NCBI GenBank assembly: GCA_030646255.1
Contig: JAUSNF010000056.1
Span: 1-54,764 of the forward strand
From: Candidatus Burarchaeum sp.
GTDB taxonomy: Archaea; Micrarchaeota; Micrarchaeia; Burarchaeales; Burarchaeaceae
DNA: 54,764 nucleotides
Direction: 5' to 3'
Shown here: in pieces, positions 12,918 through 20,399 of the stretch
Position numbering within the stretch: the first letter of the stretch is position 1
Layout: each line of letters begins with the position of its first letter
Position numbers and translations under genes: made by a program
The notes under the pieces: generated by a model
Databases searched by the model: none
What the model saw: the letters and a program-made list of their open reading frames with translations, nothing else
What the model was told of the DNA's origin: nothing

Positions 12918-13499
12918 CTACTTGTCGGTACCTGCCTCCCCCATCATGATATCTGGTAGTTTTTCCAAGTCGTTTTTGTGGAGTAATTGGTCCGCCCCAT
13001 TTTTTCTTGCAAGGTTCAGGCATTCCCAGGATGACGATTGCGCCAGGATTGGCGTTTTAGGAAATTCCTTTTTTGCGGTGCGTATTAGCTTTAGCCCGGC
13101 CATCACTGTGTGGTCTACGTCATCGGCATCCCTTACCACGATTGGTCCGCCCCTCTTCTTCGGGAATACTATGTCCGTTATCAACATCGAAGCCGGGTCG
13201 GAGAGAACGCGCAGCGACCCCAACGCATCCTGCAGGTTGCATGCAGTTTTCACTTCATCAAGCTCGAACTTCCTGATCAGTTCGAGTATCTGCGCCATTC
13301 TCTCCGGTAGGTCTTCCACTATTAGCACGCTGCGCACGCGCGCAATAGTGCCGACCAGCGGCCGCATGCTTTCGATGGGCGGCCTCCTGATGCCCTGCGT
13401 TTCAGTCGCCAGCTGCCTGCTTGCGAGTGCAATCTCGGCACCCGGGTTCAGGCGCCTAAGTGCCGTCATCCCAATCACCCGGGTCTTCAGGCTTGACAC
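12918..13499 (-). CDS. CheY-like receiver-domain protein (stand-alone; start uncertain)
   Basis: VLIVEDLP.. (acidic pair), ..MLITDIVFP (phospho-acceptor Asp context), ..TPILAQSS and ..LLHKNDL (Lys) follow the receiver pattern, with an insertion after the Asp. ATG 13367 would give a compact 149-aa receiver. The longest ORF overlaps the upstream HTH gene by 44 nt. Confidence 0.55.
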   Translation of the reverse strand: MSSLKTRVIGMTALRRLNPGAEIALASRQLATETQGIRRPPIESMRPLVGTIARVRSVLIVEDLPERMAQILELIRKFELDEVKTACNLQDALGSLRVLSDPASMLITDIVFPKKRGGPIVVRDADDVDHTVMAGLKLIRTAKKEFPKTPILAQSSSWECLNLARKNGADQLLHKNDLEKLPDIMMGEAGTDK

Positions 13500-13650
13500 T
13501 GCGCAGCGCCCTCCACACAGACATGTGCGACATGCCGAATATTCTCGCCAGCTCGCGGAGGCTCGTGCTCTCGCTAAATGCCATGGTTTTAAGCTCCGAC
13601 AGTTTCTCGCCGCTTAGTTTTCTGGGGCGTCCTCTGCGGGATTCAGGCAC
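13456..13650 (-). CDS. small helix-turn-helix protein (IS630/resolvase-type HTH), copy 1
   Basis: GTG start. RGRPRKLSGEKLSELKTMAFSESTSLRELARIFGMSHMSVWRAL is a classic GRP..L + HTH module. It is paralogous to the frame at 16556-16768. Confidence 0.6.
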   Translation of the reverse strand: MPESRRGRPRKLSGEKLSELKTMAFSESTSLRELARIFGMSHMSVWRALRSVKPEDPGDWDDGT

Positions 13651-13780
13651 AGCGCCAACAGCGCCGCATAAAGGAATAGGATGAATACTGCTTCAGTTCG
13701 CTTCGCTGGCTTTCCTTCCGTCCGATTTCCCTTACAAGTCCCAGTCCCAATCCTTCTTCCAACCTTCTATCCTCCAGTCC

Positions 13781-13863
13781 CATTTTTCTCAGCTCCGCAC
13801 GCTTGCCCGCGTGCTCTTGCGATTGTGAAGCGGGCGATATTTAAAGATATGTAACAAAATGCG
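13781..13863 (-). repeat. conserved upstream segment, copy 1 (TTTTGTTACATATCTTTAAATATCG ... GTGCGGAGCTGAGAAAAATG on the minus strand)
   Basis: Aligns by eye with 16797-16873. It begins immediately after the stop of the preceding enzyme gene and contains a TATA-like TTTAAATAT. Confidence 0.6.
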
Positions 13864-13866
13864 AGG

Positions 13867-14940
13867 CTACAGCTCGCCGTTCCCGACCTGCCTTATCACC
13901 TGCGCGAATGTCGAAGAGCCTATCTCGTAGCACTGGATTGCAAAGCTCAGCTTGACATTCGTGCCTTCGTCCGAAGGTTGAACATCGAGGCCTTTCTCAA
14001 ACACAAGCACCGGCGGGACTTCCATGCCCATTCCCCTGGCCGGCGCCACTATTTTTTCCTCAATCTCGTCCGTACTGCACATGTCCTGCCCGAGCACCAT
14101 CACCTTTTCGTTGGATTTGATGAATTCCAACACGTCTTTCCTCGCGTGCTCCTGCTTAAGCCCCATGCTCATATTGACTATGTAGTAGTTGGTGGCGAAT
14201 ACGTGAACGAGGCTCATGTCCTCCTTTGCCCAGACGCCTCTGCCGAAGAGCTGGTTCAGCTCGTCATGCCATTGCACTATGAACTTCTCCTCGCCCAAGC
14301 ACAGCGAAGTGCTTTTCGCCACTGAGGGGTATCCTGTCTTCCTGTCGAGCAGCGTGACTGCATGCAGCCCCATCCCGCTCATGTCTTCCTTTAGTCCCCC
14401 GAACAGCCTGGCCAAGCTAGACACGATGCAGTCTCCGACCCGCCAAACGTTCTTGCCAACGCTCGACCACTTGTCTTCGCCTGCTAACGGCGGGGCTATC
14501 AGCCTGCCCCGCGGCCCGCTGGTGTCATGGTACTCGTCAGCCATCAGGAAGACCGGGACTTCGTCGAAAAGATGCCAGTATACTGCCTCAAAGTGCTTCG
14601 CGCCCCGCGTGACGTCCACGAAAACATCGCATAGCTTTCCAATGTCGCTCCTTCCCAAGGCCTCATCGAACTCGAAAATCTTCTGGGAACTGTTCAGCTT
14701 TTTAACGGTCGCGATGCCTTCCTCGAGCAGCATCCGCTTGGGCCAAATGCCGCGTGCTCCTTTCGGCAGGTTCTCCAGCCCGGTTATCAGGTTCTTCAAT
14801 GTCGCATTGTTGTGCTCTATGCCCAAGGTTACAACTGCCTCGTCCGGCCTCTTGGCCAGCTCCCGCACCAGGCCCTGGCCGTACCTGCCTGCAATGCCGC
14901 GTATGCCCACCCGTATGGGGTTGTTCATTTTCGATTGCAT
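13867..14940 (-). CDS. highly divergent archaeal type-II GAPDH-like NAD(P) dehydrogenase
   Basis: Collinear by eye with archaeal GAPDH. IRVGIRGIAGRYGQ corresponds to VAINGYGTVGKR, VWRVGDCIVSSLARL to TRVVSCNTTGLCR (Cys kept), AVTLLDRKTG to AVIVRRGAD, and STDEIEEKI to STAEIMEYA. AGGTGGG lies 3 nt before the ATG. Confidence 0.6.
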   Translation of the reverse strand: MQSKMNNPIRVGIRGIAGRYGQGLVRELAKRPDEAVVTLGIEHNNATLKNLITGLENLPKGARGIWPKRMLLEEGIATVKKLNSSQKIFEFDEALGRSDIGKLCDVFVDVTRGAKHFEAVYWHLFDEVPVFLMADEYHDTSGPRGRLIAPPLAGEDKWSSVGKNVWRVGDCIVSSLARLFGGLKEDMSGMGLHAVTLLDRKTGYPSVAKSTSLCLGEEKFIVQWHDELNQLFGRGVWAKEDMSLVHVFATNYYIVNMSMGLKQEHARKDVLEFIKSNEKVMVLGQDMCSTDEIEEKIVAPARGMGMEVPPVLVFEKGLDVQPSDEGTNVKLSFAIQCYEIGSSTFAQVIRQVGNGEL

Positions 14941-14948
14941 AAGCCCAC

Positions 14949-15791
14949 CTAGTTCACCGGTCCTTTCCGCAGCTCGGCCGTTTCAAGAAGGCGGCTAACA
15001 ACGGCATCTTCCAGGACCGCTATTGTATTGATGACTGGCAAGCCCGCGTCTGGCTCTGAAATCAGGAGCGGCAAATCCGTGCAGCCGAGAATTATGCCTT
15101 GCGCCCCTCTCCGCTCCATGCCCTTCATTATTTCCAGAAGCTTATGCCGGTCATCTGCAGTGGCTTCGCGGTTGATTATTCTCACTATGCAATCGCTGAC
15201 AAATCCTTGGGCGTTGTTATCCGGCACAATGACTGCGATTCCTGTTTTGTCGAGTTCGTTGGCATGCAGCCTTTCGTTCACGGTCTTGGTCGATGAAAGC
15301 AGCCCGGCACACCTTATACCGAGCCCTGCCGCTTTCTTGGCCGTTTCCTCCAGAATGCTGAGTATAGGTGCCTTCGAAATGGCCCGCAGTTCCTCGATGA
15401 AAACATGGACCGTGTTGCATGGAATGGCGATCAGGTCCACCTTTGCTTTGTTGAACAGGGCCATTGTCTCCTCCAGCAGCCTGAAATGCTCCTCCGAAAC
15501 GCCTCCATGGATTAATCTTTCCTCGCTTTCGCCCGTAATGGGAAGATTGACCACTATCAAGTGCGGCTGGCTGCCCGTCTCCGCTTTGAATTTGTCGTTT
15601 ATGTTCAAGCTGAACCTGAAGCCGGTTTCCGGGCCAAGGCCTCCAACCACGCCCAATATCTTTTTTCCCCGCTCATGCCACCTCATCCATTCAGCAGTGT
15701 CTGCCGACACTCTATGCCCCGTCGTTTCCGCACTGCGGCCGCTCCGCTCGCTCACGCGGCGCTCCAGCTTCCGCTCGCTTGCGTCAGACAT
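14949..15791 (-). CDS. aspartate/glutamate-family racemase
   Basis: ILGVVGGLGPETG, PCNTVH and GCTDLPLL give the two catalytic-Cys motifs. ATG 15791 overlaps the upstream stop (ATGTCTGA). ATG 15686 is an alternative that removes a basic N-terminal extension. Confidence 0.8.
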   Translation of the reverse strand: MSDASERKLERRVSERSGRSAETTGHRVSADTAEWMRWHERGKKILGVVGGLGPETGFRFSLNINDKFKAETGSQPHLIVVNLPITGESEERLIHGGVSEEHFRLLEETMALFNKAKVDLIAIPCNTVHVFIEELRAISKAPILSILEETAKKAAGLGIRCAGLLSSTKTVNERLHANELDKTGIAVIVPDNNAQGFVSDCIVRIINREATADDRHKLLEIMKGMERRGAQGIILGCTDLPLLISEPDAGLPVINTIAVLEDAVVSRLLETAELRKGPVN

Positions 15792-16554
15792 CGGAACCAC
15801 CATCAGCCCGCTCGTCGCTTTCCTTTTGCCCGCGCTGGCTCTGCGCCCACTCTTTGATTTTGGCCCGCAAAATCTCACTTCGCCGCATATTCAGGAACGT
15901 GCCCGTACAAACAAGCACAGCCGCCAGGATTTCAAAACCAGCCAGTACAAGCGAGTGTGCGCCGGAAGCCACCATGTTGAGAAGCACGATGTTGCCGAGT
16001 ACATGTACGTGTAGGAAAACACCGATATCCTGCCTGAAGCTTTCCTGTTCCTTCTTAATTTCATCCGTTTCTCCGTGCATTTGCACCAGTTTCTCCAGCC
16101 GCTTTCCGCGCAGCGTGCCGAATTTGTGCATGTCAACTGCTGAGCTCACTATGGCGCCGATCGAACTAGCCATAACCACTATGTGCATGGCTGAAATAGG
16201 CGGTTGGTCCGGCCAGAAGATAGGGCCTATTTTCGAGGAGACGAATGCAAGCACGGTGCCTGTGACGGCCATTTGCACTGTTTTCTCGCCCGTCTCCTTC
16301 CAGAAGTTTCTGTGGATGCGCCACATTTTGGAGTCTATTTTTTCCAGTTCTTCATCTTTTTGTTCCAATACTGGTTTGGTTCCGTGATTCAGCGCTTGCG
16401 CAGGTTTATTGAGTGCACCTTTTCCACTCCATGCTTCACTGCCCAGCCTGTCCGGCTCTAGCTTCGCATTCCTGCACGCAGGCGTCATCCGGTCCCGGCC
16501 TGCCGATGGCTTCCTCTCGGGTGGTTGCTTCTTTTGGAATTCCATGGCACCCAC
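15784..16554 (-). CDS. hypothetical membrane protein (about 4 TM, hydrophilic N-terminus)
   Basis: A GTG (16554) or ATG (16545) start lies directly after the HTH-2 stop. Hydrophobic segments include VTGTVLAFVSSKIGPIF, ISAMHIVVMASSIGAIVSS, VLGNIVLLNMVASGAH and LVLAGFEILAAVLVCTGTF. Confidence 0.55.
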   Translation of the reverse strand: MGAMEFQKKQPPERKPSAGRDRMTPACRNAKLEPDRLGSEAWSGKGALNKPAQALNHGTKPVLEQKDEELEKIDSKMWRIHRNFWKETGEKTVQMAVTGTVLAFVSSKIGPIFWPDQPPISAMHIVVMASSIGAIVSSAVDMHKFGTLRGKRLEKLVQMHGETDEIKKEQESFRQDIGVFLHVHVLGNIVLLNMVASGAHSLVLAGFEILAAVLVCTGTFLNMRRSEILRAKIKEWAQSQRGQKESDERADGGSDV

Positions 16555-16555
16555 C

Positions 16556-16768
16556 CTAGGCCCTCAGCAGCTCGTTGAACTCATCCGAGTTCACGGTGCG
16601 CCAGACGGACATGTGCGAAACGCCCAGCCACTTCGCAATCTCGCGAAGGCTGGCGCTCTCGCTCAGCCAGATTTGCTTCAGTTCCAGCAGCTTCTCGCCC
16701 CTCAGCTTCGAAGGGCGCCCCCTAGGCGATTCAGAATTAGCAGTCCGTATAAAGGAAATTCCTTTCCG
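16556..16768 (-). pseudogene. HTH paralogue, copy 2, with no ATG/GTG/TTG upstream of the HTH
   Basis: My minus-strand translation is ..NSESPRGRPSKLRGEKLLELKQIWLSESASLREIAKWLGVSHMSVWRTVNSDEFNELLRA*. It is open between TAG 16769-71 and TAG 16556-58. The only in-frame Met lies inside the recognition helix. It is either degraded or expressed unconventionally. Confidence 0.4.
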
Positions 16769-16796
16769 CTACTTCCGAACACCCCCTGTTTGAATT

Positions 16797-16873
16797 CATT
16801 CTCTCACTCCGCACGTTTCCGTGCAATTGTAATTACGAGTTCCCGATTTTTAAAGTTATGTAACGAAAAGGCG
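16797..16873 (-). repeat. conserved upstream segment, copy 2 (TTTCGTTACATAACTTTAAAAATCG ... GTGCGGAGTGAGAGAATG)
   Basis: Same order and orientation as 13781-13863. It overlaps the stop codon of the decarboxylase-like gene. Confidence 0.6.
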
Positions 16874-18169
16874 CGTCACATCCTCGAGCGTCTGCCTTCT
16901 TGCTATCAGGTGTATTTCATCATTCTTAACCAGCCAGGCAGAGGGCCTGAGCTTTCCAAGGTAATTTGATCCCGACATTGAATATCCGTATGCACCTGCA
17001 AATAGCACCATGATGGGGTCGCCCGGTGCCAGTGAAGACGGGAACTTAGCTTCACCAAGTACATCTGCGCGCAGCGTGCTGTAACCCCGGACTATTGAAT
17101 CTAACGCAAGTTCTTCATCGAGTTTTTCTACTGCAACTATTGGGTGGTTTATCCCATAAATCCAGTAGCGGCTGAACTGGGTGCATGAAGCGTCGACATT
17201 CACTACCTGTCTGTCCTTCCGACCCTTCACATCCACAACCCTTGTCAGCAGAACTCCTGCCTTTGCGAATATGCTCCTGCCTGGCTCAATCGCCAGCTCG
17301 GTGCCTGCTGAGCAGATGTTCTTCAGGAGTTCTAACCTGCCTCTAATTTCCATGCCGTAGCTAACGAAGTCAAAATCAGACTGGGAACCGCCGTAATCTA
17401 TTCCAAATCCGCCACCAATATTTATCGTCTTGAGCCTCTTCCGGAATTCTGCGGGTATTGTTTTTATGAATTCGATGAAATGATCAACTATCTTGAGGTT
17501 CTCGCGGTAGTCAAGAATATTGGTGCCGGGGTAGATGTGAAGCCCGGTTATAATCACGCAATTTTTTTCCGCTTGCCTGATGCTTTCCGCAACATCCTGC
17601 ACAGGAATGCCTATAGTGCTCTCAGCCCCTATTGCGGGAACGCGCGTGCCTGGCGGCGGTTCGATGTCAAGCTGCACCCGCAGGCCGCATTCCCTCCCGC
17701 CTTCTAATGCAAACGTATCTAGCTGGCCGCGAGAATCCAGATTCACGTATATTTTTTGTCTGGCCAGAACTGCAAGGTCTTCCGACGGTATGCCCGAAGA
17801 GGTTACTATGATGCGTTCAGGCTTCAGCATCAGTTGCTCGGGTTTCGAATGCGCATAGGCCATGAGAATGTTAACCTCGTCCAAAGTATTGCACAGAATT
17901 CCCCCGTTTGCTATCAGCTTATCGCATTCTGCCACCAGGGGCGGAAGCCCTACGGTAAAAAGCGGAACGTACATGCGCGTGCCATCGGGCATCGCCCTAT
18001 TGATGAACTTCACTTGCTCGGCAATGGTGTTCAGGTCATGGCAGTAAGTAGGTGTCGTCATTCTGCCCTCTATTTTTGCCGAATTTTCCAACACTTCCTT
18101 GTAGTGCTTCAGAATGAATGGAGGAATGCAACGTTCAGCAACTGGCCTGGCAGTATGGTTCTTTATCAT
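16856..18169 (-). CDS. fold-type III (Orn/DAP/Arg decarboxylase-like) protein with atypical active-site residues
   Basis: TPTYCHD.., GLHIYPGTN, NIGGGFGI, EPGRSI and AGAYGYSMSGSNY follow the group IV decarboxylase pattern. ATG 18169 lies 6 nt after GGAGGTG, and the track's GTG 18178 is part of that SD. Confidence 0.8.
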   Translation of the reverse strand: MIKNHTARPVAERCIPPFILKHYKEVLENSAKIEGRMTTPTYCHDLNTIAEQVKFINRAMPDGTRMYVPLFTVGLPPLVAECDKLIANGGILCNTLDEVNILMAYAHSKPEQLMLKPERIIVTSSGIPSEDLAVLARQKIYVNLDSRGQLDTFALEGGRECGLRVQLDIEPPPGTRVPAIGAESTIGIPVQDVAESIRQAEKNCVIITGLHIYPGTNILDYRENLKIVDHFIEFIKTIPAEFRKRLKTINIGGGFGIDYGGSQSDFDFVSYGMEIRGRLELLKNICSAGTELAIEPGRSIFAKAGVLLTRVVDVKGRKDRQVVNVDASCTQFSRYWIYGINHPIVAVEKLDEELALDSIVRGYSTLRADVLGEAKFPSSLAPGDPIMVLFAGAYGYSMSGSNYLGKLRPSAWLVKNDEIHLIARRQTLEDVTRLFVT

Positions 18170-18267
18170 CTCATCCACCTCCCGCCAGCATTAGCCCATT
18201 TTCAGAAAATAAACATATGTAGAGAAAAGTTTGACAAAAGAAAAAGAATTTAAAGAAATACTTTCAT

Positions 18268-19263
18268 ATGACAACTATGGTCGAAGTGCAAGGGCAGGGG
18301 CTCGACGTGAAGGATAGGTGGCTCCTTTACGCACTGGATAGGAACGCGCGCCAGCCGCTCGCGGCGCTCGGCAGGGCTGCGAAGGTGTCAAAGCAGGTAG
18401 CTGCCTACCGGCTGCAGGGCCTGATCGAGCGAGGCATAGTCAAAGGTTTCATAACTGTGCCGAACGTCTCGAAGTTCGGTTACAAGTCGCACAAACTCCT
18501 CCTGCGCTTCCAGAATCTGGGCCCTGAAAAAGAGGGCGAACTCATACGATACCTAGTGAAACATCCTGCGGTTGGATGGCTCGTGAGGTGCGTGGGGCGC
18601 TGGGATGTCGTACTTGTAGTCTGGTCCAAAAATGACCTAGACTTCGCGACATTCCTGCAGGAGCTCGAGAACAAGTATGGTGCCTACATATTGGAGCGGG
18701 ACATTTCAGTCATGCTCTCTGTGCACTATTACTTCAGGAGTTATCTCGTTGGAAGGGAAAGACGCGAAACGGATTACTTTTTGCTCGAGGGCGTGCCACA
18801 GGGAGAATTCAAGACAGATGAGACCGATGTGAAGCTAGTGCAGCTGCTCTCGCAGAATGCGCGCGCCTCGCTGGCTGAGCTGGCTGAAAAGTTGGGAATG
18901 ACTGGGCCAGCCGTGAATTATCGGCTCAGGCGGCTTCTGAAGGAAGGCGCTATTCTTGGCTTCAGGCCGAGCCTCAACCTGCCCGTGCTGGGCTACCAAT
19001 ATTACAAAGTTTTTTTCAGGATGCAGAACCTGACCGCAAAGCGGGAGATCGAGCTTTTCCGCTACTTCGGCCAGCACCCGAACATAACCTATGCCACGCG
19101 GTCTATAGGTGCGTCGAATGTCGAGATCGAGGTTGAGATAGAAGATGCACTGAAGTTCAATGCCCTGCTGATGGACCTGCGGAAGCAGTTTGCAGATATT
19201 GTGCGGGATTACGATTCGCTGCTGATATATGAGGAGTACAAGCACGGCCACATGCCGGGCTAG
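18268..19263 (+). CDS. tandem (two-unit) Lrp/AsnC-family transcriptional regulator
   Basis: There are two HTH_AsnC modules (DRWLLYALDRNARQPLAALGRAAKVSKQVAAYRLQGLIERGIV and DVKLVQLLSQNARASLAELAEKLGMTGPAVNYRLRRLLKEGAI). Each is followed by a RAM-like domain. The gene is divergent from the cassette. Confidence 0.85.
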   Translation: MTTMVEVQGQGLDVKDRWLLYALDRNARQPLAALGRAAKVSKQVAAYRLQGLIERGIVKGFITVPNVSKFGYKSHKLLLRFQNLGPEKEGELIRYLVKHPAVGWLVRCVGRWDVVLVVWSKNDLDFATFLQELENKYGAYILERDISVMLSVHYYFRSYLVGRERRETDYFLLEGVPQGEFKTDETDVKLVQLLSQNARASLAELAEKLGMTGPAVNYRLRRLLKEGAILGFRPSLNLPVLGYQYYKVFFRMQNLTAKREIELFRYFGQHPNITYATRSIGASNVEIEVEIEDALKFNALLMDLRKQFADIVRDYDSLLIYEEYKHGHMPG

Positions 19264-19292
19264 TTATTAAATATAAACTGAGAAAACACGTT

Positions 19293-20399
19293 ATGGACCT
19301 CGAATCCCGCCTTGCGCTCATCACACGCGCCCCCACTGAAGAGGTGGTCACGCACGAGGAGCTGCGCGCGCTGCTGCAGAAGCAGGAGAATCCAATAGCC
19401 TACAATGGCTGGGAGCCTTCGGGCCTAGTACACTTGGGCACGGGACTGATGTGCGCGTACAAGATGCGCGACTTCATTGATGCGGGCGTGCGCTTCAAGG
19501 CCTACCTCTCGACCTGGCATGCCTGGCTGAACAACAAGCTGGGCGGCGACATGGAGGCCATAAAGAAGGCCGCGCAGCATTTCAAGCACGCGTGGATTGC
19601 GTGCGGCGTGCCCGAGGACAAGGTGGAGTTCGTTCTTTCCGAGGCTCTTTATGATGACATTACTTACTGGGAGAAGGTAATCAAGGTTGCAAAAGAACTA
19701 ACTGTAGCGCGAACAGTGCGCACGCTCGAGATTGCGGGAAGGGGCGAAGATTCCGAGGAGGGCCGGAAAGTTGCCGAGCTCCTTTACACGCCCATGCAGG
19801 TCGCCGACATATTCCACCTCAACATTGAATTGTGCCAGCTCGGCACAGACCAGCGCAAGGCCAACATGGTCGCGCGCGAGGTGGGCGAGAAGCTGGGCTT
19901 CTGGAAGCCTGTGTGCGTGCACCATCACCTGCTGCAGGGGCTTGCCAAGCCGCCGCAATGGCCGCTGCCCGCGGATGCGACTGAAAGAAAGCAAGTACTC
20001 TCATCTGTGAAGATGAGCAAGAGCAAGCCAGACACGTGCATTTACATCTACGATGAGCCAGCTGAGATAAAGCGCAAATTGGGCAATGCATTCTGCCCTG
20101 AGCGCGAATTGGATTTCAATCCCGTGATGGACATTGCCAAGCACATAGTCTTCCGCGAGCGCGAGGCGAGCGGCATCATAATCGAGCGGCCTGCCAAGTT
20201 CGGCGGGAACCTCGAGCTGCAGAATTTCGAGGAGCTTGCAAACGCTTACAGGGAAGGCAAGCTGCACCCAATGGACCTCAAGAACTCGGTTGCAAGCGAG
20301 CTGACTCTCATTCTAGAGCCTGTGCGCGACTACTTCGTGAAGAATAAGGAGGCGCACGAGACGCTGAAGTTCATGCAGTCGCGCAAGATTACAAGATAG
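19293..20399 (+). CDS. tyrS: tyrosyl-tRNA synthetase, archaeal type
   Basis: Collinear by eye with M. jannaschii TyrRS. Shared segments are EELRALL..IAYNGWEPSG.VHLG, YTPMQVADIFHL, QRKANMVAREV, KMSKSKP, FNPVMDIAKH, KFGGNLEL and LHPMDLKNSVASEL. A TATA (TTAAATATAAA) lies about 20 nt upstream of the ATG. Confidence 0.92.
   Translation: MDLESRLALITRAPTEEVVTHEELRALLQKQENPIAYNGWEPSGLVHLGTGLMCAYKMRDFIDAGVRFKAYLSTWHAWLNNKLGGDMEAIKKAAQHFKHAWIACGVPEDKVEFVLSEALYDDITYWEKVIKVAKELTVARTVRTLEIAGRGEDSEEGRKVAELLYTPMQVADIFHLNIELCQLGTDQRKANMVAREVGEKLGFWKPVCVHHHLLQGLAKPPQWPLPADATERKQVLSSVKMSKSKPDTCIYIYDEPAEIKRKLGNAFCPERELDFNPVMDIAKHIVFREREASGIIIERPAKFGGNLELQNFEELANAYREGKLHPMDLKNSVASELTLILEPVRDYFVKNKEAHETLKFMQSRKITR

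Follow-up and report, generated by a model that had tools for sequence, protein, structure and literature searches.

The Schiff-base lysine is treated as a hallmark of PLP enzymes, and engineered Lys mutants of these enzymes are severely impaired. PMP-dependent sugar dehydratases (ColD and E1 type) naturally lack this residue. They are a precedent for a B6 enzyme without an internal-aldimine lysine, but they belong to fold type I rather than fold type III and act on other substrates, and the analogy is functional only. In fold type III, the ODC and D-Orn/D-Lys decarboxylase variants with the Lys or Cys replaced are engineered single mutants. PDB entry 9cpz is, by its title, a C387S variant with PMP and aldehyde, and it associates the fold lacking its proton-donor Cys with decarboxylation-linked transamination. 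The secondary-metabolism proteins BtrK, SbnH, FslC and the exosortase-associated TIGR03099 resemble diaminopimelate (DAP) decarboxylases, and their deposited entries or annotations describe them as PLP-dependent decarboxylases. AZIN1 and AZIN2 are eukaryotic, ODC-derived pseudoenzymes that also lack catalytic residues; antizyme inhibitors are monomeric, act via antizyme and have no decarboxylating activity (PMC4066113).

The window (the whole analysed stretch of 54,764 nucleotides from Candidatus Burarchaeum sp.) contains a DAP-decarboxylase-like gene without the Schiff-base Lys at positions 16856-18169 on the minus strand. The host is a tiny symbiotic DPANN archaeon. The gene encodes a 437-aa protein that starts at an ATG at 18169 after GGAGGTG, a good Shine-Dalgarno sequence, and ends with a stop codon at 16856-16858. 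The frame of 437 codons has no interruption. The motifs first read from this stretch (TPTYCHD, YVPLFTV, HIYPGT, NIGGGFG, EPGRS, GYSTLRAD and GAYGYSMS) are all found in its minus-strand translation. There is a slight dip in GC content across the gene, which is not decisive. An Rfam scan of positions 13000-20000 gave no match.

The 437-aa protein matches both Pfam domains of the Orn/DAP/Arg decarboxylase superfamily, PF02784 (7e-16, 58.7 bits; gathering cutoff 23.4) and PF00278 (1e-8, 35.6 bits; gathering cutoff 23), and has the TIM-barrel plus beta-sandwich fold of this fold-type-III group. The AlphaFold2 model has a pLDDT of 95.3 and a pTM of 0.93. With this predicted model as the query, Foldseek matches DAP decarboxylase structures with an E-value of 1e-29 and TM scores of 0.8-0.9. 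The best phmmer match to DAP decarboxylases in the PDB has an E-value of 8e-28. The assignment to the fold-type-III family is far above chance.

The closest relatives by sequence among the described systems are the LysA enzymes (Aquifex 2p3e, H. pylori 2qgh, E. coli 1knw). They share the two-domain fold (TM 0.8-0.9) and the phosphate and pyridine-N anchors with the window protein, but they contain a Schiff-base Lys, a stacking His, a Cys-Glu pair and DAP-binding loop residues that it lacks. The NCBIfam lysA model (TIGR01048) matches it with an E-value of 1.3e-49 but at 168.8 bits, under the curated equivalog cutoff of 297.9. The 437-aa protein is not a LysA. BtrK, SbnH, FslC and TIGR03099 have the same fold and similar scores; the Lys-less members reach none of those curated cutoffs.

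In the window protein, the canonical position of the Schiff-base Lys (xxA-x-K-A-N) corresponds to L70-F71 (17957-17962, minus strand). The earlier note had aligned the Lys to a Leu. The pairwise alignment to 2p3e places L70 in the Lys column, whereas F71 takes this place in the multiple alignments and in the profile alignment to 2p3e; the absence of the Lys is the same in all of them, and the Leu holds for the pairwise alignment. No Lys occurs within 6 residues on either side of the site in the pairwise, multiple or profile alignments. A Lys supplied by a shifted register is rejected on the basis of these alignments and of the absence of a compensating Lys conserved elsewhere in the Lys-less clade. 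Two other lysines, K315 and K24, are not compensating residues, since K315 is kept equally in canonical enzymes and K24 is located in a subclade-specific N-terminal helix.

The GPxCExxD motif aligns to G362-Y-S-T-L-R-A-D369 (17063-17086, minus strand), in which Thr365 replaces the Cys, Leu366 replaces the Glu and the terminal Asp is kept. The catalytic Cys and Glu are thus missing, as had been claimed. Two further changes had been overlooked. In H211-I-Y213 (17531-17539, minus strand), the PLP-stacking His of HxHxGS is replaced by Tyr213 in the pairwise, clade and profile alignments; in the Lys-less clade, 98% of sequences have a Tyr in this column, and 89% of canonical sequences have a His. 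At position 92, a Leu is present in place of a conserved Asp/Glu. The substitutions are kept in the orthologues and throughout the clade, a point that the first reading had left to be checked.

These replacements bear on whether the protein could be an ordinary diaminopimelate decarboxylase in which a register shift or a different loop supplies the Lys and the Cys. Its overall best matches are LysA enzymes, and its relatives carry the public label "diaminopimelate decarboxylase". Three independent alignments leave the site and its surroundings without a Lys, however, no conserved Lys in the clade compensates for it, and the score is below the lysA cutoff. The DAP-specific residues H174, T179, K185 and F186 show no conservation in the Lys-less clade. 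Neither DHDPS (PF00701) nor the DAP epimerase DapF (PF01678) is matched in the genome; at a genome completeness of 84%, this does not prove that they are absent. This explanation is largely refuted and is extremely improbable.

The residues that grip the cofactor are retained. The phosphate-binding glycine loop G252-G253-G254 (17408-17416, minus strand) is 96-99% conserved in both the Lys-less and the canonical groups. E295-P-G-R298 (17276-17287, minus strand), which contains the pyridine-N contact (Glu) and a phosphate contact (Arg), is invariant, and Y394 of GAYGY (16988-16990, minus strand), a phosphate-contact Tyr, is 100% conserved. The roles of the GGG loop, Glu295 and Arg298 are presumed to be those in established ODC and DAP decarboxylase structures. 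Asp369 is likewise approximately 100% conserved in the Lys-less clade, where conservation of the anchors is 96-100% overall. In the subclade of the window protein, whose members are approximately 30-50% identical to it, 65 of 437 columns are invariant and all 11 cofactor-contact positions chosen beforehand fall among them (hypergeometric P ~4e-10, with positions that are not independent). Retention at 96-100% would argue against a degenerate cofactor site of the antizyme-inhibitor kind.

The Schiff-base Lys is absent in 57 of 257 homologues. The 56 of these that have a residue in the Lys column form one clade with a support of 1.0, which includes the window protein and contains no Lys-bearing members. 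Within this clade, the Lys column is Met in 67% of sequences, followed by Phe, Val and Leu. The clade signature consists of this hydrophobic residue together with Tyr213, Thr216, Asn217, Thr/Ser364, Arg185, Phe403 (conserved at 95%) and Asn73. The Cys-Glu region becomes Thr-(Thr/Val)-(Ala/Phe/Tyr), and Tyr403-Asn becomes Phe-Leu. By profile score, the clade is far nearer to DAP decarboxylases than to ODC and AZIN (304 bits for 2p3e and 91 bits for AZIN). The closest relatives of the window protein are P0003, P0123 and P0124. Related loci were searched with a 5-sequence subclade alignment, as a 49-sequence clade alignment is too divergent, and the loci found with it are mostly canonical enzymes.

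NCBIfam has no dedicated model for the Lys-less clade, and one member (P0004) passes the curated LysA cutoff (304.3 compared to 297.9 bits). A literature search for fold-III families without the Lys, or for any member that has been characterised, found none. The clade is large, conserved, apparently unstudied and mislabelled in databases as an ordinary enzyme. Compared to the engineered ODC and D-Orn/D-Lys variants, its changes are natural, multiple, co-adapted and clade-wide.

The best explanation, to which we give a probability of roughly one half, is an enzyme that holds PLP or PMP non-covalently and has an altered chemistry. On this reading, the folded 437-aa protein is probably a functional member of the large monophyletic Lys-less sister branch of the diaminopimelate decarboxylases. 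Judged from the alignments, the cofactor-gripping part of the pocket is kept in the form of the phosphate cup (the GGG loop, Arg298 and Tyr394), the pyridine-N partner Glu295, Arg164 and Asp369, and the residues for chemistry at C4' and C-alpha have been exchanged in a concerted, conserved manner. PLP (or PMP) would be held without an internal aldimine, and the amino group of the substrate itself would form the aldimine directly. After loss of CO2, the absent proton donors may alter the outcome or the rate, which could result in slow release of the amine or in decarboxylation-linked transamination or oxidation to a carbonyl. The 9cpz variant may serve by analogy as a mechanistic model, as it shows the effect of losing the proton donor. 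The genome contains the PLP synthesis gene PdxS and other PLP enzymes. The severe impairment of engineered Lys mutants counts against the putative catalysis without the Lys in this clade.

The earlier note had left the choice between a pseudoenzyme and altered chemistry, with the antizyme inhibitors as its analogy. Altered chemistry fits better than a dead regulator of the AZIN type, because the anchors are kept at approximately 100% and the replaced positions are strongly conserved (Tyr 98%, Phe403 95%). The genome contains no PF02784 gene besides the Lys-less one, and no canonical paralogue for it to regulate was found. Unlike AZIN1 and AZIN2, the clade is prokaryotic, retains its cofactor anchors and has no partner decarboxylase in the genome. 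A further point in favour of altered chemistry is that clade members are joined, by fusion or coupling, to enzymes that would take up a decarboxylation product.

Among the fusions, Lys-less members are joined to a spermidine-synthase-like domain or a SAM methyltransferase, and P0155 has an ACAD-like C-terminal domain. Coupled GNAT-like and FemAB-like genes occur downstream of bacterial Lys-less genes. Upstream of them are B12-rSAM, SPASM-rSAM, PqqD-like and QueA-like genes, which form RiPP-like cassettes in the order QueA-like, PqqD-like, SPASM-rSAM, ApyD-like B12-rSAM and then the Lys-less protein. The published aminopyruvatide (ApyD) system includes no decarboxylase-like protein. The bacterial members, like BtrK, SbnH, FslC and TIGR03099, are located in specialised-metabolite clusters beside tailoring enzymes. 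There is an established pathway logic in which a flavin N-hydroxylase acts after a decarboxylase, as in valanimycin (PMC7347517). In bacteria, the product would pass to the fused or coupled aminopropyltransferase, methyltransferase, ACAD-like flavoprotein or GNAT-like enzymes, or to the radical-SAM RiPP-like cassettes. The shared trait of the partner enzymes may be amine modification or, alternatively, the use of SAM. The bacterial cassettes point to uncharacterised natural-product chemistry. The spermidine-synthase fusion raised the possibility of a stand-in for AdoMet decarboxylase, which was rejected for the window protein, as a search for a spermidine synthase gave none and there is a gene of the pyruvoyl AdoMetDC family.

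Divergently transcribed from the Lys-less gene is a tandem AsnC/Lrp-type HTH regulator of 331 aa (18268-19263, plus strand). This Lrp/AsnC-type regulator is the sole conserved neighbour in the subclade of the window protein, and it belongs to a paralogue family for which many relatives have some 5-15 matches in each genome. The archaeal gene is probably controlled by this amino-acid-responsive type of regulator. The association is also consistent with a non-catalytic pseudoenzyme, whose pocket would be kept only for ligand binding (PLP, PMP, an amino acid or a phosphorylated molecule) and whose role would be that of a sensor, a carrier or a scaffold, for instance in biosynthetic complexes or with the Lrp-type regulator. 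Four residues of the catalytic centre are replaced, and the family already contains dead regulators in the antizyme inhibitors (PMC4066113). Against this, such a protein would have no canonical paralogue to act on in this genome, and the new residues show strong conservation in place of drift. Clade members are repeatedly fused or translationally coupled to tailoring enzymes, which suggests a step in metabolism; antizyme is, moreover, a eukaryotic circuit. We consider a pseudoenzyme rather doubtful.

An enzyme of altered chemistry can also be placed in a broader scheme, which we put forward only tentatively. The Lys-less clade may be the first natural fold-type-III B6 class without an internal aldimine, with PLP or PMP held only by the phosphate cup, Glu295 and a stacking Tyr. 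Decarboxylation, or decarboxylation-linked transamination or oxidation, would feed amine-tailoring enzymes and radical-SAM peptide-like natural-product pathways. On this view, the window gene would be an archaeal offshoot that was gained by horizontal transfer and is controlled in response to amino acids.

The Lys-less gene had been described as the opening gene of an operon that also contains a racemase and a dehydrogenase. This description finds no support, because a promoter-like element and a small HTH gene open a new unit directly after the gene, and the racemase and 357-aa genes do not accompany it elsewhere. The core of the promoter-like, TATA-containing element (16844-16864, minus strand; approximately 75 nt in full) overlaps the end of the Lys-less gene, with its final codons and its stop. 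Its sequence is duplicated at 13835-13855 (core, minus strand), and these are the only two copies in the whole assembly. A small homeodomain-like HTH frame without a canonical start codon (16559-16768, minus strand) is duplicated as well. Its paralogue, an intact 64-aa gene at 13456-13650 on the minus strand, is 65% identical to it. The remaining minus-strand frames are a 256-aa ORF with hydrophobic, membrane-protein-like stretches and no family match (15784-16554), an Asp/Glu-type amino-acid racemase identified by a family match (14949-15686, probable start ATG at 15686) and a 357-aa ORF with a Rossmann-like N-terminus that starts 8 nt past the racemase stop (13867-14940). The 357-aa ORF owes the label "dehydrogenase" solely to weak similarity to GAPDH-II (E 0.006) and DapB_N (E 0.06); its fold prediction (pLDDT 38) gives no usable model. 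The Lys-less gene is probably monocistronic.

The stretch from 18098 to 19020 is approximately 83% identical in DNA to the metagenome locus L090. This includes the divergent intergenic region (18170-18267), also at approximately 83%, and ends about 25 codons into the decarboxylase-like gene. The end of the similarity probably marks a recombination or replacement breakpoint. The regulators of the two loci are 91% identical, whereas the decarboxylase-like proteins are only 43% identical, which could mean relaxed constraint on the window gene. As part of the best explanation, and as probable as it, the body of the gene at this locus would have been swapped or have diverged very fast.

The window protein carries the clade residues F71, Y213, T216, N217, S364 and T365. 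It deviates from near-invariant residues of the clade at five positions (Y44H, A69P, N73V, R185T and F403Y) and has the longest branch of its subclade. A same-genus genome has no match to the window gene, and the Lys-less type has no match in approximately 400 genomes of the phylum. The deviations, the long branch and the identity of 43% beside a regulator of 91% count against the preferred reading. Together with the missing matches and the rearranged locus with its start-less HTH frame, they would also fit a relic, a gene in decay or without function that drifts as selection relaxes in the reduced genome of a DPANN archaeon, in a clade that may itself be enzymatic. The unbroken frame with its good Shine-Dalgarno sequence, the pLDDT of 95 and the intact state of every cofactor anchor and of the subclade signature argue against decay, and the sharp DNA breakpoint suits allele replacement more than gradual decay. 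A relic is unlikely. Under the preferred reading of an enzyme with altered chemistry, the Lys-less gene in this archaeon would be a rare accessory gene, a component as probable as that reading itself.

A conserved natural clade that lacks the Lys but has an intact cofactor cradle would test how far B6 catalysis needs an internal aldimine, and it could reveal a new reaction specificity. Lys-less proteins carry the DAP decarboxylase label, and P0004 even passes the LysA cutoff. The label "diaminopimelate decarboxylase" can therefore mislead predictions of lysine biosynthesis, above all in reduced genomes like those of DPANN archaea.

The decarboxylase-like gene (16856-18169, - strand) has 437 codons with GGAGGTG ahead of its ATG, and its translation contains every motif quoted in the earlier note. 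The protein matches both Orn/DAP/Arg decarboxylase Pfam domains above their gathering scores. The best NCBIfam match is lysA (1.3e-49), at 168.8 bits well below the cutoff of 297.9 bits. An AlphaFold2 model built from a 49-sequence alignment (pLDDT 95.3, pTM 0.93) matches solved diaminopimelate decarboxylases (DAPDCs) in Foldseek with E ~1e-29 and TM 0.8-0.9. On sequence comparison, the window protein belongs, as a divergent member, to a conserved DAPDC-family branch that lacks the PLP Schiff-base Lys. Identity with LysA itself is rejected on the sub-cutoff lysA score and the replacement of the Lys, His and Cys-Glu residues.

In the phmmer alignment with Aquifex LysA (2p3e), Y-V-P-L-F-T-V lies opposite Y-A-V-K-A-N-F, and G-Y-S-T-L-R-A-D lies opposite G-P-I-C-E-T-G-D. 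In multiple alignments, and when a profile of the Lys-less clade is aligned to 2p3e, the Lys column is F71, one position from the phmmer register (L70). The site is hydrophobic in either register and the nearest Lys is more than six residues away. The loss of the PLP Lys, first proposed by eye, is therefore upheld by pairwise, multiple and profile alignments, none of which shifts a Lys to or near the site; the loss of the Cys and Glu is likewise confirmed. The PLP-stacking His of HxHxGS is replaced by Tyr213, and a conserved acidic residue at position 92 by Leu. No compensating conserved Lys was found in the clade or subclade alignments. K315 is conserved equally in canonical, Lys-bearing enzymes, and K24 lies within an N-terminal helix specific to the window's subclade.

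The Lys is absent from 57 of 257 homologues (at least 330 aa, pooled from two database searches). The 56 with a non-Lys residue in this column form a single clade with a support of 1.0 (FastTree, LG+gamma), which includes no Lys-bearing sequences. Within this clade, the Lys column is Met (67%) or, in the remainder, Phe, Val or Leu. His213 is replaced by Tyr (98%), Ser216 by Thr (88%) and Lys185 by Arg (91%), and position 217 is Asn (82%). P-I-C-E becomes N-T-(T/V)-(A/F/Y) and Tyr403-Asn becomes Phe (95%)-Leu/Cys. Arg164, the GGG loop, Glu295, Arg298, Asp369 and Tyr394 are 96-100% conserved; these are the cofactor phosphate and ring-nitrogen contacts of solved ornithine decarboxylase and DAPDC structures. 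The other four sequences of the window's subclade are ~30-50% identical to the window protein. Of the 437 columns of the subclade alignment, 65 are invariant, and these include all 11 cofactor-contact positions (hypergeometric P ~4e-10, the positions not being independent). The substitutions are thus conserved clade-wide. Because the replacements are conserved and the cofactor contacts kept, the alignments indicate that the clade has a remodelled site under selection, not a decaying one. No published description of such a clade or of a characterised member was found in the literature searched, and no solved structure of a Lys-less member is among the PDB matches.

We infer, with a probability of about 0.5, that the window protein is an enzyme of altered reaction specificity that holds a B6 cofactor non-covalently. 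Altered chemistry was one of two options in the earlier note and is the most probable. The other, an antizyme-inhibitor-type protein, is rejected: the window protein belongs to a conserved Lys-less DAPDC branch with its cofactor contacts kept. A drifting relic copy would fit two features of the window protein, whose branch is the longest of its subclade and which departs from five near-invariant residues of the clade; this reading is improbable.

The partners of the Lys-less clade bear on its chemistry. P0202 is a Lys-less protein fused to a spermidine-synthase domain (PF01564 1e-34) and P0166 is fused to a class-I SAM methyltransferase. The C-terminal half of a third Lys-less protein, P0155, is acyl-CoA-dehydrogenase (ACAD)-like on two weak lines (atlas score 0.95; glutaryl-CoA dehydrogenase 5.8e-4). 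Lys-less proteins are encoded at 14 of 160 fetched loci, in three context types. In the first (L010, L011, L012 and L097, and L013 and L098, both interrupted by contig ends), SnoaL-like, QueA-like (PF02547 1.6e-71), PqqD-like, SPASM radical-SAM and B12 radical-SAM genes precede the Lys-less gene, as in the conserved bacterial cassette at L097:4713-11119. The best match of the B12 radical-SAM protein is the RiPP methylase ApyD (271.7 bits, cutoff 750), and the published ApyD system has no Lys-less decarboxylase-like protein. The QueA-like protein is a homologue of a tRNA-modification enzyme (ribosyltransferase-isomerase). The cassette resembles an uncharacterised pathway of the RiPP type into which this homologue has been recruited. 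In the second type (Bacteroidota; L015, L066, L080, L100, L111 and L115), a GNAT-like gene overlaps the Lys-less stop. A FemAB-like gene is next in L100, and on long contigs more B12 or SPASM radical-SAM genes are close by. The third type comprises the window and its orthologous locus L090, in both of which the gene lies beside a divergently transcribed tandem AsnC/Lrp regulator.

Amines are the typical substrates of aminopropyltransferases, N-methyltransferases, GNATs and ACAD-like N-oxygenases. Pathways in which a flavin N-hydroxylase acts after a decarboxylase are established, as for valanimycin (PMC7347517). Mainly on these two grounds, there is reason to think that the clade may still make a decarboxylation product. 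SAM use is a possible alternative common denominator of the partners. A ligand-binding pseudoenzyme is a less likely reading than catalysis, but a likelier one than the relic.

The L090 orthologue, from a metagenome, is 43% identical to the window protein over its full length. The divergent regulator is the same, with 91% identity over the portion held on the short contig. From 19020 to 18098 the window has ~83% DNA identity with L090, a stretch made up of the regulator gene, the intergenic DNA and ~25 initial codons of the decarboxylase-like gene. Beyond these codons the identity collapses, and the DNA downstream is unrelated. An N-terminal peptide with the consensus TAR-x-x-AERCIP-x-x-ILK-x-YK is common to the three closest relatives. 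We take this to mean that the locus stayed fixed while the gene body was probably replaced or recombined; alternatively, the gene diverged very fast. Either bears on the relic reading. The tandem double-AsnC/Lrp-HTH regulator (18268-19263, + strand, ~330 aa) belongs to a paralogue family that has expanded strongly: many of the related small archaeal genomes have ~5-15 matches each. This is an unusual regulatory investment at a genome size of ~1 Mb.

A TATA-containing element of ~75 nt is present in exactly two copies in the whole assembly, ~3 kb apart in direct orientation (- strand). Copy 1 (16780-16870, core 16844-16864) is at the 3' end of the Lys-less gene and copy 2 (13780-13880, core 13835-13855) follows a 357-aa gene. 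A small homeodomain-like HTH frame lies after each copy, with 65% identity between the two. The copy-2 ORF (13456-13650, - strand, 64 aa) is intact. The copy-1 frame (16559-16768, - strand, 70 codons) has no ATG, GTG or TTG start and would be either a pseudogene or a gene with a non-canonical start; in-frame ATT or ATA codons lie upstream. After it come a membrane-protein-looking 256-aa ORF and an Asp/Glu-type racemase (probable start 15686), whose stop is 8 nt from the start of the 357-aa ORF. Everything from the copy-1 HTH frame to the 357-aa gene thus lies between the two elements, an arrangement that may represent a duplicated promoter-plus-regulator module or a cassette-insertion scar. 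Because the element and HTH frame lie at its 3' end, the decarboxylase-like gene is most likely monocistronic, with the racemase and 357-aa genes in a unit of their own. L090 and two related genomes do not keep the grouping. The operon with a racemase and a dehydrogenase suggested earlier is therefore not supported, and 'dehydrogenase' is a weak label for the 357-aa ORF, for which fold prediction was unsuccessful. In the two related genomes, GalT/HIT-like nucleotidyltransferase and HATPase-domain genes follow the 357-aa homologue (L173:1456-3570; L174:498-2622), and neither genome has a decarboxylase-like match. These neighbours suggest a sugar-nucleotide or nucleotide-linked role for the 357-aa family rather than one in amino-acid metabolism.

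The window is archaeal, as its tRNA-intron endonuclease and archaeal-type TyrRS indicate. In the genome (1.21 Mb, 84% complete), the gene is the sole PF02784 member, and there is no match to DHDPS, DAP epimerase or spermidine synthase. The genome encodes PdxS and several aminotransferases, so PLP is available in this archaeon. It also has a pyruvoyl AdoMetDC-family gene; the only matches to this family are at contig ends (C7:1-159 and C19:17-148) and look like two halves of one assembly-split gene. A same-genus genome has no match to the decarboxylase-like gene. The Lys-less type is rare in the phylum, because in a sample of ~400 genomes the next-best matches score at most 222 bits, versus 654 for the window's gene, and the Lys is present, along with Cys-Glu or Cys-Asp, in all 19 of these that were inspected. 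In the tree, the nearest subclade's located members are bacterial (Bacteroidota, Rhodospirillaceae), which suggests a horizontal origin.

Clade members are labelled 'diaminopimelate decarboxylase' in public sources, and the clade has no dedicated NCBIfam model. The Lys-less homologue P0004, in which the catalytic Lys, His and Cys are absent, scores 304.3 bits on the LysA equivalog model (cutoff 297.9). It would be named diaminopimelate decarboxylase automatically, despite the missing catalytic residues.
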